The notes beneath the pieces are model-generated. The model worked only from the letters and a program-made list of their open reading frames with translations, was not told the origin of the DNA and did no database searches. A stretch of 35,579 nt of DNA from an uncultured virus (IMG/VR IMGVR_UViG_3300042879_001731) (Duplodnaviria; Heunggongvirae; Uroviricota; Caudoviricetes): the IMG/VR virus record IMGVR_UViG_3300042879_001731; one strand, given 5' to 3'. Positions 1,493-26,870 of the stretch are shown here, one piece after another (positions within the stretch are counted from its first letter, which is position 1; every line of letters starts with the position of its first letter). The translations under genes were made by a program, and so were the position numbers.

Positions 1493-2221
1493 TTATGATT
1501 CGTATTCTCTCAATAGAAATTTATATGACTCTTGACCTTCCTCTGTTTTTAACCATGCGGATAGTGCTGTTTCTGGAGTCTCATTCAGTGGAACAGAAAA
1601 CGCACGTTTTCTATTATCTTTTAAGTTAAAATGAACATCTCTTCCATGATTTCTAGTGGCAAAATAGCCATCTTTAAATGCACGAAATGCTATATCTTCA
1701 ATTACTAATTCAGGATCTTCTAAAGAGTCCATAAAGTCTTGAGGATATGCCTCAGCAATATTCATAATTTCCCATTTTAGTTCACTTGATGACATCTTAT
1801 CTGTATTTTTACCTGTAAATACACGAATAACTGAAGCCATTCTATCTGGAGTCAATGATCTAGCTGCAATTTTAGCATCAAGAACAAGATCTTCATTTTT
1901 AAGTTTTTCTTCAGCATCTTTAGCTGGATCCCATTCGAAAAATACATCTCCATTTTCTGGATGCAATTTTAAGAATTCATATAAAACAGGATTCTTATCT
2001 GACACTTGAAGAATTCCATCTTCAAATACAATAGCCTCTAAGATAGCATTATCATCTTGTTCGTCTTGGAATGGAGATGTTTGATTACTTGCGTATCTCA
2101 AGCTTCTATTTCTTCCTGACTTTTCGTCAAAATATAAAAGTCTTTTTGTAGGGGTATCTCTCGATTGTAGAATAAATGATACGGGAGATTTTTTGCTTCT
2201 CAGCATGAACATTCTAGTCAT
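1493..2221 (-). CDS. Hypothetical protein immediately downstream of the major capsid gene
   Basis: 242-aa ORF with an AT-rich start context; position in the head module. Confidence 0.7.
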   Translation of the reverse strand: MTRMFMLRSKKSPVSFILQSRDTPTKRLLYFDEKSGRNRSLRYASNQTSPFQDEQDDNAILEAIVFEDGILQVSDKNPVLYEFLKLHPENGDVFFEWDPAKDAEEKLKNEDLVLDAKIAARSLTPDRMASVIRVFTGKNTDKMSSSELKWEIMNIAEAYPQDFMDSLEDPELVIEDIAFRAFKDGYFATRNHGRDVHFNLKDNRKRAFSVPLNETPETALSAWLKTEEGQESYKFLLREYES

Positions 2222-11967: not shown

Positions 11968-11987
11968 AATGCAAAGATAATTAAAAA

Positions 11988-13687: not shown

Positions 13688-13705
13688 GACACAAAGATAA
13701 AAAAA

Positions 13706-20720: not shown

Positions 20721-20736
20721 ACCGCAAAGATACTAA

Positions 20737-21358: not shown

Positions 21359-21560
21359 TACAGAATGTTTTATTGTACCACTTCATTGCTTCATATTTCT
21401 TTCTATCAGCTTCCATTTCAGCCTCTAAATCAAATGGAATAGATGCATTTTCATAGAACACTTTATGAGTAGTTATGCTCCTATCTCCATTTTCAAACAC
21501 GTGTATGTTTGTGTCTTCAAGATATATAATACCTTTAAACTGAATGCTGTTATTTGTCAT
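21345..21560 (-). CDS. Hypothetical protein between groEL and groES
   Basis: 71 aa, overlaps both neighbours. Confidence 0.5.
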   Translation of the reverse strand: MTNNSIQFKGIIYLEDTNIHVFENGDRSITTHKVFYENASIPFDLEAEMEADRKKYEAMKWYNKTFCNARD

Positions 21561-23136
21561 CTTGTCTCATATTAGTTACAACAACCTCAGTAGATAGTAT
21601 AGTAGTGGCTACAGACACAGCGTTTTTAAGAGCACTCTTAGTTACCTTAGACGGATCTATAACTCCCATCTTAACCATATCTCCATATTTATCGTTCTTT
21701 ACGTCATACCCAAACCCATATACATCTTTGTCAATTATAGGCTGTGATACACTAACTTTATCCAAACCTGCATTCTCAACAATACGAGCAAATGGTGCGG
21801 TAAGTGCCGTCTTTATTATGTCAACGGCAGCCTGATAGTTTATGTCCTCAGCGTTGTCCTTTATCCTCTGAGAGGCATTGATAAGAGCAATACCACCCCC
21901 TGGCAAGATGCCTTCCTCAATAGCTGCAGCTACAGCTCTAACAGCGTCATCAACCCTGTCATACTTCTCCTTCTGCTCAATGTCACTATTGGCCCCTACA
22001 TAAATAACTCCAACACCTCCATCAATATTAGCTATCCTCTCTTGTAAAAACTCCTTCTCATACTGCTGCTTTACCTCAGAATGCTTGTTCTTTATAGACT
22101 CCAAATGCTGATTAACCTCCGTGTCATCAACAGCGTCATGTCGCATGATAATAGTTCTATCCTTTGACACAACTATCTTTGCAGCTCTACCCAACCCATC
22201 AAAATCAATTAGTGACAAATCGTCACCAGTTGACTCAGAATAATATCTAGCACCCAAAACAATAGATAAATCCTTCATCAAATCAGCCTTTCGCCATCCC
22301 ATACTAGGCGGCTGAATATGGCATGCCTTAATATTTCTCTTGGCAACATTCAAATTTAACGCGTTTAACGCGTTCGCGCTCAAATTGCCAATAATAAGTA
22401 TAGGTCGGCCCTGCTGAATGACAGGCATCAAAGCCTTCTCTATAGACTGTAAGTTGTTTATCTCTACATCAGACAGAAGAACATATGGGTTGTCTAACAC
22501 ACTCTCCTCAGTCTCCTCATTTGTGATGAAATACTTACTAGACCATCCCCTGTCGATCTTCATGCCGTGAATAATGTCAATATAGGTTACCGGAGTAGCA
22601 GAGTTCTCCACAGTAACAACGTTAACCTGCTTGAACGCGTCAGCAATAAGGTCTCCAAGCTCCTTGTCATTGTTTGCCGAGATAGCTGCAACGTCATTTA
22701 GTAACTTTTTAGTTACCTTCTTAGATAACTTCTTGTCCAAAAACTCAACAATACCGTCAGTTATCTTGTTCATATGACGAATAACCTCAGTTCGGTTGTG
22801 CTCCTCATCAATATACTCGTCAGCAGCATCTATCAAAGCCTCCGTCAGTACAACGCTAGTTGTCGTTCCATCGCCAGCAACAGTTGATGTCCTGTCAGAT
22901 GCCTGCCTAACCAACTGAACAGCCAAATTCTCCACCGGATCAAATAAATTTATAGTCTTAGCAACAGTAATGCCGTCCTTCGTAACTGTAATACCACCAA
23001 TATGATGCTCTGACTCCAGTAATACAGTCTTGCCTCTAGGTCCTAACGTGCTGCCTACCGCCTTAGCGATCTTGTGAATGCCATTTCTGAGCTTATTTTG
23101 CCCAACATTGTCGAAAAATAACTGCTTAACTATCAT
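21550..23136 (-). CDS. groEL: Chaperonin GroEL (cpn60)
   Basis: TLGPRG, TKDGITVAK, AGDGTTT, PGGG, GVIDPSKVTKSAL; lacks the GGM tail. Confidence 0.97.
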   Translation of the reverse strand: MIVKQLFFDNVGQNKLRNGIHKIAKAVGSTLGPRGKTVLLESEHHIGGITVTKDGITVAKTINLFDPVENLAVQLVRQASDRTSTVAGDGTTTSVVLTEALIDAADEYIDEEHNRTEVIRHMNKITDGIVEFLDKKLSKKVTKKLLNDVAAISANNDKELGDLIADAFKQVNVVTVENSATPVTYIDIIHGMKIDRGWSSKYFITNEETEESVLDNPYVLLSDVEINNLQSIEKALMPVIQQGRPILIIGNLSANALNALNLNVAKRNIKACHIQPPSMGWRKADLMKDLSIVLGARYYSESTGDDLSLIDFDGLGRAAKIVVSKDRTIIMRHDAVDDTEVNQHLESIKNKHSEVKQQYEKEFLQERIANIDGGVGVIYVGANSDIEQKEKYDRVDDAVRAVAAAIEEGILPGGGIALINASQRIKDNAEDINYQAAVDIIKTALTAPFARIVENAGLDKVSVSQPIIDKDVYGFGYDVKNDKYGDMVKMGVIDPSKVTKSALKNAVSVATTILSTEVVVTNMRQDDK

Positions 23137-23662: not shown

Positions 23663-24322
23663 TTAATCCCATGATGCAAAGGTGGTGATTTTATTTCCTT
23701 TTCTTAAATTCTCATCTGCCCATAGTGGCTGTAGGTTGGTGTAATGGTTCAACTGTAACAAATGTTGCTCGTCTTTTGCTTTCGACACTGGGTATATGTG
23801 GTCGATATGCCAATATCCATGATTCTCCCACGTCATGCCAGGTTTGAATAAAGATTCAAAGTAAGCTTTAAATGTTTCATATTCGCATCCGAGTATGTCG
23901 AACGTGTGACTTTTCTTTTTGTAACCTTGTTTTTTTATAACTGCTTTTATTAGTGATCTTATATTGCATCTCATTCTAAAGTCAACATCCATAGCCATTC
24001 TATTTCGTTTGTATATTCTGTTGTATTCTTTTTTTGAATTACATTTTATTTTTTCTACTACTGGCTCTAATGTCTTTCTTAATTCATATTTTTTTAAATA
24101 TCTATTCTTTTTTACTACTTCTTCCTTTCGTGATTTTTTTGCTAAATCAAGAGCATGTCTATTTTTGTAAGACTCTTTATTTTTTTCTTTGTGTAATTTG
24201 AAATAATTAGACATGCATTTTCCACAATGATTATATCTACCGAATGTTGACGAATCATGTTTTTTAAATTCATCTAATAGTTTTTCTTCGTTGCACTTTG
24301 TGCATTGTTTAAATACCCACAT
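23663..24322 (-). CDS. HNH endonuclease with N-terminal CxxC...CxxC zinc finger (likely start MWVFKQC at 24322)
   Basis: CTKC...CGKC; WHIDHIYP...NHYTNLQPLWADENLRK. Confidence 0.85.
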   Translation of the reverse strand: MWVFKQCTKCNEEKLLDEFKKHDSSTFGRYNHCGKCMSNYFKLHKEKNKESYKNRHALDLAKKSRKEEVVKKNRYLKKYELRKTLEPVVEKIKCNSKKEYNRIYKRNRMAMDVDFRMRCNIRSLIKAVIKKQGYKKKSHTFDILGCEYETFKAYFESLFKPGMTWENHGYWHIDHIYPVSKAKDEQHLLQLNHYTNLQPLWADENLRKGNKITTFASWD

Positions 24323-24431
24323 AATAAAAAATCCTAACAGAATCCAATAGGGTCTCACGTCTATTTTCATCTATTAGGATAATAATGTTTTACAAAGATA
24401 CTATAGTGAGACCGTATCCACAACAAATATA
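24323..24431 (-). ncRNA. Candidate kissing-loop leader RNA of the HNH gene
   Basis: Two hairpins whose loops carry the complementary sequences GGTCTCAC and GTGAGACC. Confidence 0.6.
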
Positions 24432-24467
24432 CAAAATATTATGTTACAAGTACACGAAGTGTTGGCC

Positions 24468-24766
24468 CTGACGGATAAAATGCTCATTTCCAAGCACATT
24501 GACGGAACGAGTATGATTCACTGACGGATTTTCACCAGTATTTACTGGTATACTGACGATATGACGATAAAACTCCAGTTATTATATATATATTATACTT
24601 TTATACCTATTTACCTATTCTATTTAACATAATATTTATTTTTTCTAACCGCTCAATAGGAAATTATCGTCAACTCGTCAAGAACCGCATAAACAGTACA
24701 AAAAACCGTCAGTAGATCATACTTGCTTCGTCAAGATTGTTGATTATCAGCACTTTATCCGTCAGC
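24468..24766. repeat. Symmetric TGACG repeat array around an AT-rich core (origin-like element A)
   Basis: TGACG at 24469, 24500, 24522, 24554, 24562; CGTCA at 24668, 24676, 24707, 24729, 24760. Confidence 0.75.
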
Positions 24767-25097
24767 CAACTAAAAATATAATTTTAATAATTAGCAGATT
24801 CAAATGAAATTCATAATAATCAGCAAAATCCTCAGGCTGGTAAAACTCAAATCCGACATTCAGACCTGTCGGTATCATGTTGTGTATCTCTATAGTCATA
24901 CAACAAAGTTATATATTTTGACTGCATATGCGGAGGGTTTGGATAATATACCCATTTCACGTGATGACCCGTCAAAAGAAAACGACATGAATTTCGCATG
25001 GGGGGTATCCATTTCAAAACTTTCGGCTGAACTTTTTGGCTTTTTGTCTGAGGGGTGTGCCTGTAGGCATGGCTATTTGTTGCACGACCGCCCCTGC

Positions 25098-25203
25098 GGT
25101 ATACATGTCGCGCGCTAGGTATGTGTGTATGCATGTGTATGTGAGCGCATGTATGCCTGTGTGTACGCATGCACGCACGCGCGCCCAGTCGCACGCACGC
25201 GAG
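25098..25203. repeat. Mostly alternating purine-pyrimidine low-complexity tract
   Basis: GTATGTGTGTATGCATGTGTATGTG...GTGTGTACGCATGCACGCACGCGCGC. Confidence 0.7.
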
Positions 25204-25574
25204 ATCTGTAGTCCGTTTCACTTTGTAACCATGTCGACGGAATGCAAGTCTATTTAACATAATGTTACAATGCATGAAGTTAGATTAACATGACTGCCGT
25301 TCGTACTGAATTGCTGACGAAAATTCCGCCCGTTCGTTTTACGCGTTTATACGTCTGAAGGGAAGGAATAACCCCACCCCTCTACCTATCCCTCTTTAAA
25401 CCCATTTAACGCGCTTACATACGCGCGCACGCGTAGGGAGGTCTAACTATCTGATTATCAATATCAAAGCAATGTAATGCAAAATTACTTTATTATTCGT
25501 CGAAATAAATGTATTAATTCATCGATGAAAATATGCCATTCGTCTAAAAAAGTAAAATATTTTCGTTGATATCC

Positions 25575-25604
25575 TTGCAAGTGTTAAAATCTTGCCTACC
25601 TTTG
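25575..25604 (+). promoter_or_regulatory. Early promoter, TTG(-33)...TACCTTTG(-7)
   Basis: TTGC at 25575 and TACCTTTG at 25597-25604; Bacteroidetes primary sigma consensus. Confidence 0.7.
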
Positions 25605-25821
25605 TTTCAAGCAAACGAGCTAAAAACATCAAAAGTCTAAACGTAATTAAAAGGGGGTGACAAAGCCCACCACGGAACAAGACGAGATAAGCAAGTTTGA
25701 AATTCTTTGAAATATTGTAACATGCGTTTCCTGAGGTAACACCAAGGGACAAACAAAGAAGCCCGATGAGATATCGGTCAAGGCTTTGATTAAATGGTAA
25801 CTTTTCACGCATGGGGTTACG

Positions 25822-25870
25822 CCGTCACAAAGTGAGTACTTTGTCTGATGAGTTCAAAAGAACGAAACGG
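25822..25870 (+). ncRNA. Type III hammerhead ribozyme; predicted cleavage after C25826 (GUC)
   Basis: Stem III CCGT/ACGG; stem I ACAAAGT-gagt-ACTTTGT; core CTGATGA; stem II GTTC-aaaa-GAAC; core GAAA. All conserved nucleotides are present. Confidence 0.92.
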
Positions 25871-25898
25871 GTTAACAAACAATTTAAATTTTTGAGTC

Positions 25899-25961
25899 AT
25901 GTGGATTATATTAATAGTTTTATTTGCCTATGTAGGTAAGTTAATAAATGAGAGTAAATAA
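25899..25961 (+). CDS. Possible 20-aa membrane peptide MWIILIVLFAYVGKLINESK
   Basis: Shares the TTTGAGTCATG start context with the next gene. Confidence 0.4.
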   Translation: MWIILIVLFAYVGKLINESK

Positions 25962-25979
25962 CAATAAATTCTTTGAGTC

Positions 25980-26687
25980 ATGAAAGCAATTTTTAGAAAT
26001 GAGAATACTATTCAGGTATTCAGATTTGACACTACGTCAAACGACAAAATCGAAGCTAACAAGAAAAGAAAGATAGTTCAATCGTATACATTCAGTCATA
26101 AACAATACGAACTAATTTTAAACGGCACAAATGAGGGGATGCGAATGTTTTTCAGCAATGCCGATAGTAATTGTTTAGACTGTCCATTCAACGAATTTGG
26201 AAAATGCTATACGCACAAGTTCAATCAGTATGTCGGATTTGTATCCATGCTCAAAAGTATAGCTTCAGAGTATGGACAATTTGAAAACATCCCGACATTT
26301 AGCCGTGAAATTCACAGACAAATAGTAAAGATGTCACAGGGAACTTACGTTCGATTTGGGACATATGGCGAACCATCTATACATCCATTGCAATTAATAA
26401 AGGACGTTATCAAGGTAGCTAATAACCATACTGGTTATACTCACCAATGGGACAAAAAACCTGAATTATCGTCGGTATTCATGGCATCAACACATGACGC
26501 AGTTAATGAACGCATTGCAAGAGACAAGGGCTTCCGTTCATTCATTGCTACAGACAAGCCAATTGAGGGGGCTGTAAATTGTCCCGCTAGTAAGGAATCC
26601 GGATACAAAAGTCACTGCTCAAAATGTGGTTTGTGTAGTGGTTCGGAGGGCAAAGGAAACAAATCGGTTTACATTTTAATGCATTAA
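25980..26687 (+). CDS. Cys-rich putative Fe-S protein (radical-SAM-like / gp88-like early phage protein)
   Basis: CLDCPF....CY, VRFGTYGEP, GYTHQW, CPAS...CSKCGLC. Confidence 0.6.
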   Translation: MKAIFRNENTIQVFRFDTTSNDKIEANKKRKIVQSYTFSHKQYELILNGTNEGMRMFFSNADSNCLDCPFNEFGKCYTHKFNQYVGFVSMLKSIASEYGQFENIPTFSREIHRQIVKMSQGTYVRFGTYGEPSIHPLQLIKDVIKVANNHTGYTHQWDKKPELSSVFMASTHDAVNERIARDKGFRSFIATDKPIEGAVNCPASKESGYKSHCSKCGLCSGSEGKGNKSVYILMH

Positions 26688-26690
26688 GTC

Positions 26691-26870
26691 ATGAAATCAG
26701 TCAGCAATTACGAATACACGACGAGGGCAAAGGTCATCAACAAGGATATGCCCTCATACGGGAAGATAGTTAACATAATTAAGAAGGTCAATAGGTTTAA
26801 ATATCTGATAGAGTATACGCCTGGGGGTCGGTCTTACTACATGGATGTAGATAGTTTGGAATTAATTTAA
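26691..26870 (+). CDS. Small hypothetical protein (59 aa, not in ORF track)
   Basis: MKSVSNYEYTTRAKVINKDMPSYGKIV...DSLELI fills the gap between neighbours. Confidence 0.6.
   Translation: MKSVSNYEYTTRAKVINKDMPSYGKIVNIIKKVNRFKYLIEYTPGGRSYYMDVDSLELI

Follow-up and report, generated by a model that had tools for sequence, protein, structure and literature searches.

A predicted type III hammerhead ribozyme ahead of the first gene of an operon in an uncultured tailed phage

The window analyzed here, a stretch of 35,579 nucleotides (nt) from the uncultured virus IMGVR_UViG_3300042879_001731, carries on its plus strand, at 25822-25870, a complete type III hammerhead reading CCGTC/ACAAAGT-GAGT-ACTTTGT-CTGATGA-GTTC-AAAA-GAAC-GAA-ACGG (Table 1). 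From its core, fold and covariation we hold with high confidence that it is a genuine self-cleaving ribozyme. The element is non-coding, lies in phage DNA on the sense strand of the adjacent plus genes, and is not overlapped by any open reading frame (ORF) of at least 50 amino acids (aa). The hammerhead is placed behind a promoter-like box and before the first ORF, and therefore cleavage would detach a leader of about 215 nt. The reading that we consider likely is leader removal, in which the transcript of the plus operon would cut itself co-transcriptionally in its 5' untranslated region (UTR). A previous sequence-only reading of this DNA had given the same letters, strand and coordinates, which were unchanged when the sequence was re-read, and its assignment to type III has been borne out by the core, the topology and the covariation.

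All residues of the conserved core (C3-U4-G5-A6-N7-G8-A9 and G12-A13-A14) are present as CTGATGA and GAA, together with the A15.1-U16.1 pair and a position 17 that is not G (C). Three helices surround this core both in the cmscan alignment and in the minimum-free-energy fold; stems I and II end in closing loops and stem III is open. For 25810-25885, the structure of minimum free energy is the hammerhead three-way junction itself. RF00008 (Hammerhead_3) aligned to 25819-25873 over the full model (1-54) with 36.1 bits, corresponding to an expectation value (E) of 4e-6 for a 601-base stretch and of 2.4e-4 for the whole window, both strands and all 4227 families. Thus, the check by cmscan that had been proposed for this element returned a full-length match, but one below the gathering score of the family (48.5). 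A hammerhead descriptor scan of the whole window revealed exactly one site. When the window was simulated 1000 times with a first-order Markov model, a comparable motif with stems of at least 6/4/4 base pairs (bp) appeared in one simulation and one with stems of at least 3/3/3 bp in 26. No DNA similarity to GenBank phages was found for 24300-26700, and the 66-nt ribozyme stretch gave eight weak partial matches in them. In the DNA contigs of runs X2-X5, whose coverage is patchy, none of the 40 differences listed (266 in all) falls within 25822-25870; one X3 contig agrees with the window through 25870 and then carries the spacer of the L150 type, a homologous contig described below. Among RNA runs, none was found to contain the stretch.

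The exact 24 nt of core plus stem II were found in 56 IMG/VR stretches, many of them on contigs of about 60 kilobases (kb), and in eight stretches of metagenome-assembled genomes (MAGs): four from Saccharibacteria and one each from Paceibacteria, Chitinophagaceae, Gammaproteobacteria and an unclassified bin. After removal of duplicates, the window and 47 other distinct sequences were aligned (n = 48). In this alignment, 99.6% of 720 cells are paired, and two-sided changes are seen at 8 of the 15 pairs, i.e., six of the seven in stem I and two of the four in stem III. Stem II is invariant because the search pattern fixed it, and the core CUGAUGA and GAA are likewise constant by construction of the search. 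The covariation score was 0.63 against 0.19 in shuffles, none of 500 reaching 0.63, and at most 0.12 when the partner strands were slid. Position 17 is C or A throughout. Loop I always begins with UG (consensus UGWGUR), and loop II reads AAAA; these features hint at a contact between both loops, of the kind that hammerheads need for fast cleavage at physiological Mg2+. The family covariance model built from this material (R1) scores the window hammerhead at 73.4 bits, a value to be read with the window sequence being part of its training set.

The surroundings of the family were surveyed in 50 distinct contexts. A same-strand ORF of at least 40 codons begins no more than 60 nt downstream in 48 of them (median 27 nt), a same-strand open frame ends at most 70 nt upstream in 41, and an adjacent upstream hairpin with a free energy (dG) of -8 kcal/mol or stronger, often the near-identical GUGUCUUCAAAGACAC, is present in 35. 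The usual order is therefore gene, hairpin, hammerhead, about 27 nt and next gene. Two IMG/VR sequences, L018 and L027, were left out of the alignment, as their flanks give no type III fold. By eye, the 24-mer of the contig L018 (~1501-1524, minus strand) directly follows a 3' end resembling that of a transfer RNA (tRNA), with T-arm and CCA; it seems to be a type I hammerhead, and may represent tRNA 3' processing by a ribozyme. Additionally, the stretch L170 (184-1837 of the MAG contig CAIZLB010000006.1, from the unclassified bin) holds three copies of the 24-mer within 1.1 kb.

Homologues in position were found with R1 and with a metagenome scan using a motif of the leader. A hammerhead occupies the same genomic place in five lineages: the window, the uncultured relative G003, the contigs L150 (identical to L153) and L152, and the Flavobacterium phage elemoA. 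The shared place is the leader of the first gene of an operon that diverges from the structural genes, with a spacer of 14-28 nt to the ATG. The terminase of G003 is 77% identical to that of the window. As in the window, the hammerhead of G003 and its terminase are on opposite strands, with the hammerhead about 15 kb upstream. The cultured phages vB_FspP_elemoA_7-9A and elemoB_14-3B also carry it (36.5 bits with R1). In elemoA (NC_055852.1, 19082-19141, minus strand), it lies 16 nt ahead of gp62, the first gene of the diverging operon, an arrangement that mirrors the window, where the plus genes from 25899 oppose terminase, portal and GroEL on the minus strand.

In the five positional hammerheads, CUGANGA, GAA and A15.1-U16.1 are constant, and core variation is confined to N7 (U/C/A/U/A for window, G003, L150, L152 and elemoA) and N17 (C/U/C/A/A in the same order, never G). 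Each of the three stems varies among the lineages through compensating changes, so that the partner strands match. In the same order, stem I reads ACAAAGU, UACUGGU, ACGGGAU, UACAAGU and UAAGGAUG; stem II reads GUUC, CCA, GUCC, GUCC and GUCA; and stem III reads CCGU, GCAU, CGU, UCGU and AAGCGU. The covarying stem II pairs are GUUC/GAAC, GUCC/GGAC, GUCA/UGAC and CCA/UGG. RF00008 scored elemoA, L152 and L150 at 36.3, 33.0 and 27.8 bits, respectively, all below 48.5. Given that the gathering threshold is a curated score and not a structural criterion, the whole phage subgroup is under-called.

It is thus extremely improbable that the element is a chance or decayed hammerhead-like sequence which does not cleave. 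A score under the threshold and closest relatives lacking a hammerhead would suit such an origin, but the perfect core, the canonical GUC triplet, the rate of one in 1000 simulations and the strong covariation, both in the 48 sequences and in the five positional homologues, do not.

Upstream of the hammerhead, the promoter-like box that had been placed at 25597-25604 is present (TACCTTTG) and ends 222 nt ahead of the cleavage site. It matches TAnnTTTG, which we take to be the Bacteroidota -7 promoter consensus, and it is the sole plus-strand match among those listed between 24160 and 26984. The arrangement TTG-N19-TAnnTTTG is kept in three of four lineages (the window, G003/L147 and L150). The counterparts of the box are TATGTTTG in G003, TACATTTG in L150 and CAACTTTG in L152, and TTTCAAGCAA or a close variant follows it in relatives. 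The previous estimate of about 215 nt for the leader agrees with a start near 25611, as deduced from the promoter position, and the small first ORF that had been indicated downstream was also recovered (20 codons, starting at 25899, 28 nt past the ribozyme). Taken together, the sequence-only reading is supported in part: the identity and the placement that it proposed hold, and its label of the operon as early is plausible from the gene content. A terminator-like scan gave no plus-strand site between 25600 and 25900, and a sigma-70-type promoter scan was not above shuffles (10 found, 7.6 expected).

Table 1. Features of the hammerhead region (positions in the window, unless another contig is named).
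Feature	Position	Strand	Remarks
Promoter candidate, Bacteroidota type	25575-25604	+	TTG 25575-25577, 19-nt spacer, -7 box TACCTTTG 25597-25604
Leader freed by predicted cleavage, ~215 nt	25611-25826	+	5' end estimated from promoter
Conserved 3' leader module, 114 nt	25703-25816	+	Proposed three-way junction
Upstream ORF, 13 codons, MVTFHAWGYAVTK	25794-25835	+	Predicted; starts in leader, stops at UGA in loop I
Stem III, CCGU/ACGG, 4 bp	25822-25825/25867-25870	+	Includes A15.1-U16.1 pair
C17, canonical GUC triplet	25826	+	Predicted cleavage between 25826 and 25827
Stem I, 7 bp, loop GAGU	25827-25833/25838-25844	+	
Catalytic core CUGAUGA	25845-25851	+	
Stem II, GUUC/GAAC, 4 bp, loop AAAA	25852-25855/25860-25863	+	
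GAA of core	25864-25866	+	
A/U-rich spacer, 28 nt	25871-25898	+	Ends TTGAGTC before start codon
First ORF, 20-codon hydrophobic peptide MWIILIVLFAYVGKLINESK	25899-25961	+	Predicted
First sizeable gene of plus operon, 235 aa	25980-26687	+	phrog_2554
Pistol ribozyme and type I hammerhead of Cellulophaga phage phi19:3	L163:88-155 and L163:1501-1548	-	

According to the leader-removal model, transcription would start about 7 nt past the TACCTTTG box, near 25611. As the RNA emerges, stems I and II would fold, the 4-bp stem III would close afterwards and, from hammerhead chemistry, the RNA would be expected to cut itself after C25826. The upstream product would then fall off because stem III has only 4 bp. 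The freed leader of about 215 nt would end in a 2',3'-cyclic phosphate, 13 nt past its closing helix, while the messenger RNA (mRNA) would keep a 5'-OH, its first 18 nt being the stem I hairpin, followed by stem II, the 28-nt unstructured A/U-rich spacer and the start codon. In this way, the hammerhead would act as a natural 5' UTR insulator and end-maker, by which the coding RNA would be uncoupled from a long conserved leader and the mRNA would gain a defined, base-paired, non-phosphorylated 5' end near the start codon; this end might stabilize or destabilize the mRNA, or help its translation. The same logic would fit the wider family, with its co-directional genes, hairpin, ribozyme, about 27 nt and next ORF.

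Several points weigh against leader removal. It must be noted that cleavage, transcription start and timing of the operon are all inferred. The default Rfam scan reports no hammerhead here, the fold of 25810-25885 is of ordinary stability (z -0.9), and stem III consists of only 4 bp. Among the positional homologues, G003 has a U-U mismatch at 10.1-11.1, in stem II beside the core, and L150 has just three strict stem III pairs. Moreover, the sequence (T)TTGAGTC immediately precedes the ATGs at 25899 (from 25892) and 25980 (from 25973) on the plus strand, and these TTGAGTC-ATG motifs might themselves serve as promoters; part of the mRNA would then bypass the ribozyme.

The distribution of the element also counts against the model. 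R1 gave no credible match in 12 of 13 uncultured relatives (G001, G002, MW202828.1 and G004-G012), G007 showing only a 13-bit fragment match. The completeness of these genomes as estimated with CheckV is 99-100% for G001, G002, G007, G008 and G010 and 49-70% for G004-G006, G009, G011 and G012; MW202828.1 has no estimate and is recorded as a complete circular genome. A weak R1 match in MW202828.1 (14.4 bits, E 0.1-0.17) was rejected, as it is without A15.1 and sits in the structural-gene part. RF00008 had no match in G001, G002 or MW202828.1, R1 had none in Cellulophaga phi38:1 or Tenacibaculum Gundel_1, and a permissive all-family Rfam scan of L001, L002 and L060 was negative for every class of ribozyme. 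In L001-L003, which carry the closest versions of the 235-aa gene, the intergenic DNA cannot be aligned to the window and is without the hammerhead. This absence in relatives means that the hammerhead is accessory and patchily distributed; it is dispensable.

With respect to the leader itself, it had been described as structured, and a structure can be proposed for its 3' part: the module 25703-25816 is strongly conserved, with a few compensatory changes, while the folding energy of the whole leader is ordinary (z -0.3). The leader is modular. Its 5' part, with the hairpin GGGGGUGACAAAGCCCACC, is common to L150, L152 and L155 and is not found in G003. The 3' module, which ends 10 nt ahead of the cleavage site, is 96% identical to the window in L150 and 93% in L152, whereas identity falls to 76-82% in the hammerhead stretch and to 46-58% in the flanks. 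The RNAalifold consensus is a three-way junction formed by P1 (CAUGCGU/ACGCAUG), P2 and a variable P3, with a conserved single strand GAUUAAAUGGUAACUUUUC; this single strand of the module reads GAUUAAAUGGUAAC. P2 changes from CCU/AGG to CUU/AAG in G003. In P3 there are compensatory changes from CAAAG/CUUUG to CGAAG/CUUCG (L150) and from CCGAU/AUCGG to CCGAC/GUCGG (L152), and G003 has P3 swapped for the hairpin GGGAAACC. The proposed structure, derived from four lineages, is suggestive. Rfam searches of the leader and of 24300-26100 gave no credible family except the hammerhead. A 16-mer of the leader had six matches in IMG/VR, of which one was a homologue (the G003 contig) and the other five were dismissed as chance matches in high-GC contigs; a 29-mer of it had no match in prokaryote genomes, and a 24-mer of the 5' module had a single IMG/VR match, L155, with a different 3' leader and without a hammerhead before its ORF.

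These data can also be read with the leader as the main product. The hammerhead would then be a 3'-end former that frees a small RNA of 114-215 nt with a cyclic-phosphate end, which would act in trans, bind a protein (e.g., for host takeover or operon control), or serve as regulator or decoy early in infection, what the ribozyme does for the mRNA being secondary. We regard this as doubtful, even though no sequence of the region is better conserved than 25703-25816 while ribozyme stems and neighbor genes are replaced, the module shows compensatory changes and a swapped hairpin and stops 10 nt short of the cleavage site, and hairpins lie upstream of the hammerhead in 35 of the 50 family contexts. 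The module is found in four lineages only, and its covariation is thin because three of them are about 95% identical; its fold is of ordinary stability and belongs to no Rfam family. Furthermore, L155 has a related leader with the motif GAUUAAUGGUA and no hammerhead before the ORF, and therefore release is not obligatory. The conservation may equally reflect a site at DNA level, as ATTGTAACAT, at 25714-25723 in the start of the module, recurs as an exact inverted copy at 25262-25271, 442 nt upstream and near the start of the minus side. This pair may be a protein-binding box shared by both divergent transcription units.

The patchy distribution brings in a further explanation, namely that the hammerhead is the border of a mobile or exchangeable, moron-like cassette (hairpin, hammerhead and small ORF), kept as an expression insulator and with no role specific to the programme of this phage. 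It would account for the presence in one of 13 uncultured relatives, yet also in the distant elemoA and elemoB; for the hammerheads and genes behind them that differ among L150, L152 and the window despite a near-identical leader; for the upstream hairpin that recurs almost unchanged in many otherwise unlike contigs; and for the 24-mer in eight MAG stretches of several phyla, one with three copies in 1.1 kb. Nevertheless, we judge it improbable, since no mobility gene is attached and the position is the same in five lineages with terminase identities of 45-77%; this recurrence speaks for an element kept at one specific site and against one that lands at random.

Finally, the ribozyme might be conditional, if ribosomes on the 13-codon upstream ORF unfolded stems III and I and so blocked cleavage. 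By eye, equivalent ORFs in L150 and L152 also stop at the UGA of loop I. This UGA, however, simply belongs to UGAGU, the conserved consensus of loop I. No codon position of the stretch differs among the window, L150 and L152, which leaves no coding signature, and in G003 a TAA comes directly after the ATG. Such control is therefore very unlikely, and leader removal remains the reading that we favor.

The window is phage DNA, probably of a Flavobacteriia-type freshwater podophage of about 60 kb. The minus strand (1-25275) encodes portal, large terminase, virion proteins, a GroEL-like gene and an endonuclease, whereas the plus strand from 25899 has many small ORFs, GIY-YIG and NUMOD4 homing-endonuclease-like genes, a glucosaminidase and RusA; the guanine-cytosine (GC) skew switches at about 25000. 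Its terminase shares 69% identity with the terminase of MW202828.1 (an uncultured podovirus of 60.9 kb), 45% with the terminases of the Flavobacterium phages vB_FspP_elemo* and 33-38% with those from Cellulophaga and Tenacibaculum phages. The GroEL-like chaperonin (21550-23136, minus strand, phrog_5725, E 3e-131) has a counterpart in MW202828.1, where GroEL and a GroES-like gene are at the same place. Downstream of the hammerhead, TTGAGTCATG from the end of the spacer is found again at 25973, hydrophobic mini-ORFs resembling the first ORF were seen by eye in L001 and L150, and the 235-aa gene has 71%-identical orthologues in L001-L003.

TAnnTTTG is mildly enriched in the window (62 observed against 47.8 expected) and stands just before many gene starts. 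In several minus genes it is located exactly 4 nt before the ATG (730-737, 11972-11979, 13692-13699 and 20725-20732); if these were -7 boxes, such spacing would give leaderless mRNAs or mRNAs with very short leaders. Just upstream of the promoter candidate (25494-25550) there are short direct repeats, seen by eye: ATTCGTC in the window and G003 (L147), AGTACGT / GTAGAAATAC at the same place in L150 and CCGTTCAT in L152. These lineage-specific repeats look like operator sites. The divergent junction, 24370-25600, comprises about 1.2 kb without convincing genes. It contains a 65-nt imperfect inverted repeat (24468-24532/24701-24765) around an AT palindrome (24580-24597), TGACGG/CCGTCA repeats at 24460-24770, and TCTATTTAACATAAT repeats at 24619 and 25249, inverted at 24434; this region may function as origin, terminus or operator. 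A tract of alternating purine and pyrimidine (TG/CA/CG) at 25095-25205, in this large non-coding region, is a point where metagenome contigs tend to break, and the same tract is found at a similar distance upstream of the leader in L150 (152-223), L152 (1239-1322) and G003 (L141 ~1890-1930). Rfam matches to mir-297, mir-466 and a snoRNA were rejected as low-complexity or chance, those to mir-297 and mir-466 coming from this tract. The minus-strand ORFs 25519-25812 and 24847-25275, which belong to no PHROG or Pfam family, were rejected as genes because the open frame is not kept among the leader homologues.

Other ribozymes were observed in another cultured phage. Cellulophaga phage phi19:3 (NC_021789.1) has a type I hammerhead between genes 2 and 3 of the equivalent operon and, in the same leftward operon of small genes, a Pistol ribozyme (46.5 bits, gathering score 34.5).

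Self-cleaving ribozymes are common in phages, and their function is still largely guesswork. In the sections of Perreault et al. (2011, PMC3088659) considered here, hundreds of bacterial hammerheads are described, many of them in or near prophages, for which processing of long phage transcripts was proposed; three multi-hammerhead fragments were cleaved in vitro and one in E. coli. Like the phage members described there, the window hammerhead has the consensus core, lies between or before genes on the coding strand of a phage genome, is proposed to act on long phage transcripts and occurs patchily. It differs from the set, as described in those sections, in being a single copy in a 35.6-kb window and not a cluster flanking a gene, in being a type III element whose stem II is fixed (GUUC-AAAA-GAAC) and whose loop I starts with UG, and in lying in a promoter-proximal leader instead of between two genes. 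The same sections report that in the haloarchaeal viruses HF1/HF2 the hammerhead (HHphage) precedes the first ORF of an early transcript by 13 nt, and that the 5' end of the HF2 transcript maps within 3 nt of the cleavage site. They also describe an atypical core insertion (2a, 2b) in HHphage and a related variant, HHmeta, which is the one assayed and needs high salt (PMC3088659). Both HHphage, as presented there, and the window element belong to tailed viruses and stand a few nucleotides before the first ORF of a polycistronic transcript (13 and 28, respectively). On the other hand, the core in the window is fully canonical, and its host would be among the Bacteria (Flavobacteriia-type).

Compared with RF00008, which covers viroid, satellite-RNA and plant type III hammerheads, the open stem III, the core, the GUC triplet and the hairpin-closed stems I and II are alike, while loop II falls 4 nt short of the consensus of the model and stem III is limited to 4 bp; the window element is encoded in phage DNA and does not belong to a rolling-circle RNA replicon.

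The design of RiboJ, in which a type III hammerhead between a promoter-derived leader and the translation start removes the leader and stays as a structure at the mRNA 5' end, has the same layout as the model proposed here. RiboJ is a synthetic, hammerhead-based 5' UTR insulator, as presented in the portion of Clifton et al. (2018, PMC6206723) used here. It was engineered and is used in E. coli, while the window element is natural, belongs to a Bacteroidota-type phage and is coupled to a conserved leader. The phage genes of the window show no obvious use of Shine-Dalgarno sequences, and to our knowledge translation initiation in Bacteroidota does not rely on Shine-Dalgarno pairing. Should the ribozyme prove to shape the 5' ends of mRNAs in Bacteroidota, it would be the equivalent in nature of the synthetic RiboJ. 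The glmS ribozyme likewise cleaves itself within a 5' UTR and leaves a 5'-OH on the mRNA; it depends on a metabolite, and its 5'-OH marks the mRNA for decay by RNase J1 in Bacillus; both are 5' UTR cleavage types, with ligand dependence in glmS and none indicated for the window. In eukaryotic RNA viruses, according to the part of PMC13725137 that was consulted, a ribozyme that cleaves within the 5' UTR can make translation possible. If the reading with the leader as main product were the true one, it would be a new phage non-coding RNA with a built-in ribozyme as maker of its 3' end.

In the open-access literature searched, no report of ribozymes in Flavobacteriia phages or in Elemovirus was found. 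Given that the whole subgroup scores below the Rfam cut-off, routine annotation misses it. The fixed position from uncultured lake phages to vB_FspP_elemoA_7-9A makes the function of a phage hammerhead testable in a laboratory phage-host pair. The window hammerhead joins the phage hammerheads already known from the sections of PMC3088659 cited above, and what is particular to its subgroup is a promoter-proximal position that reaches a cultured phage, sub-threshold Rfam scores of 27.8-36.3 bits and an adjoining conserved leader module.

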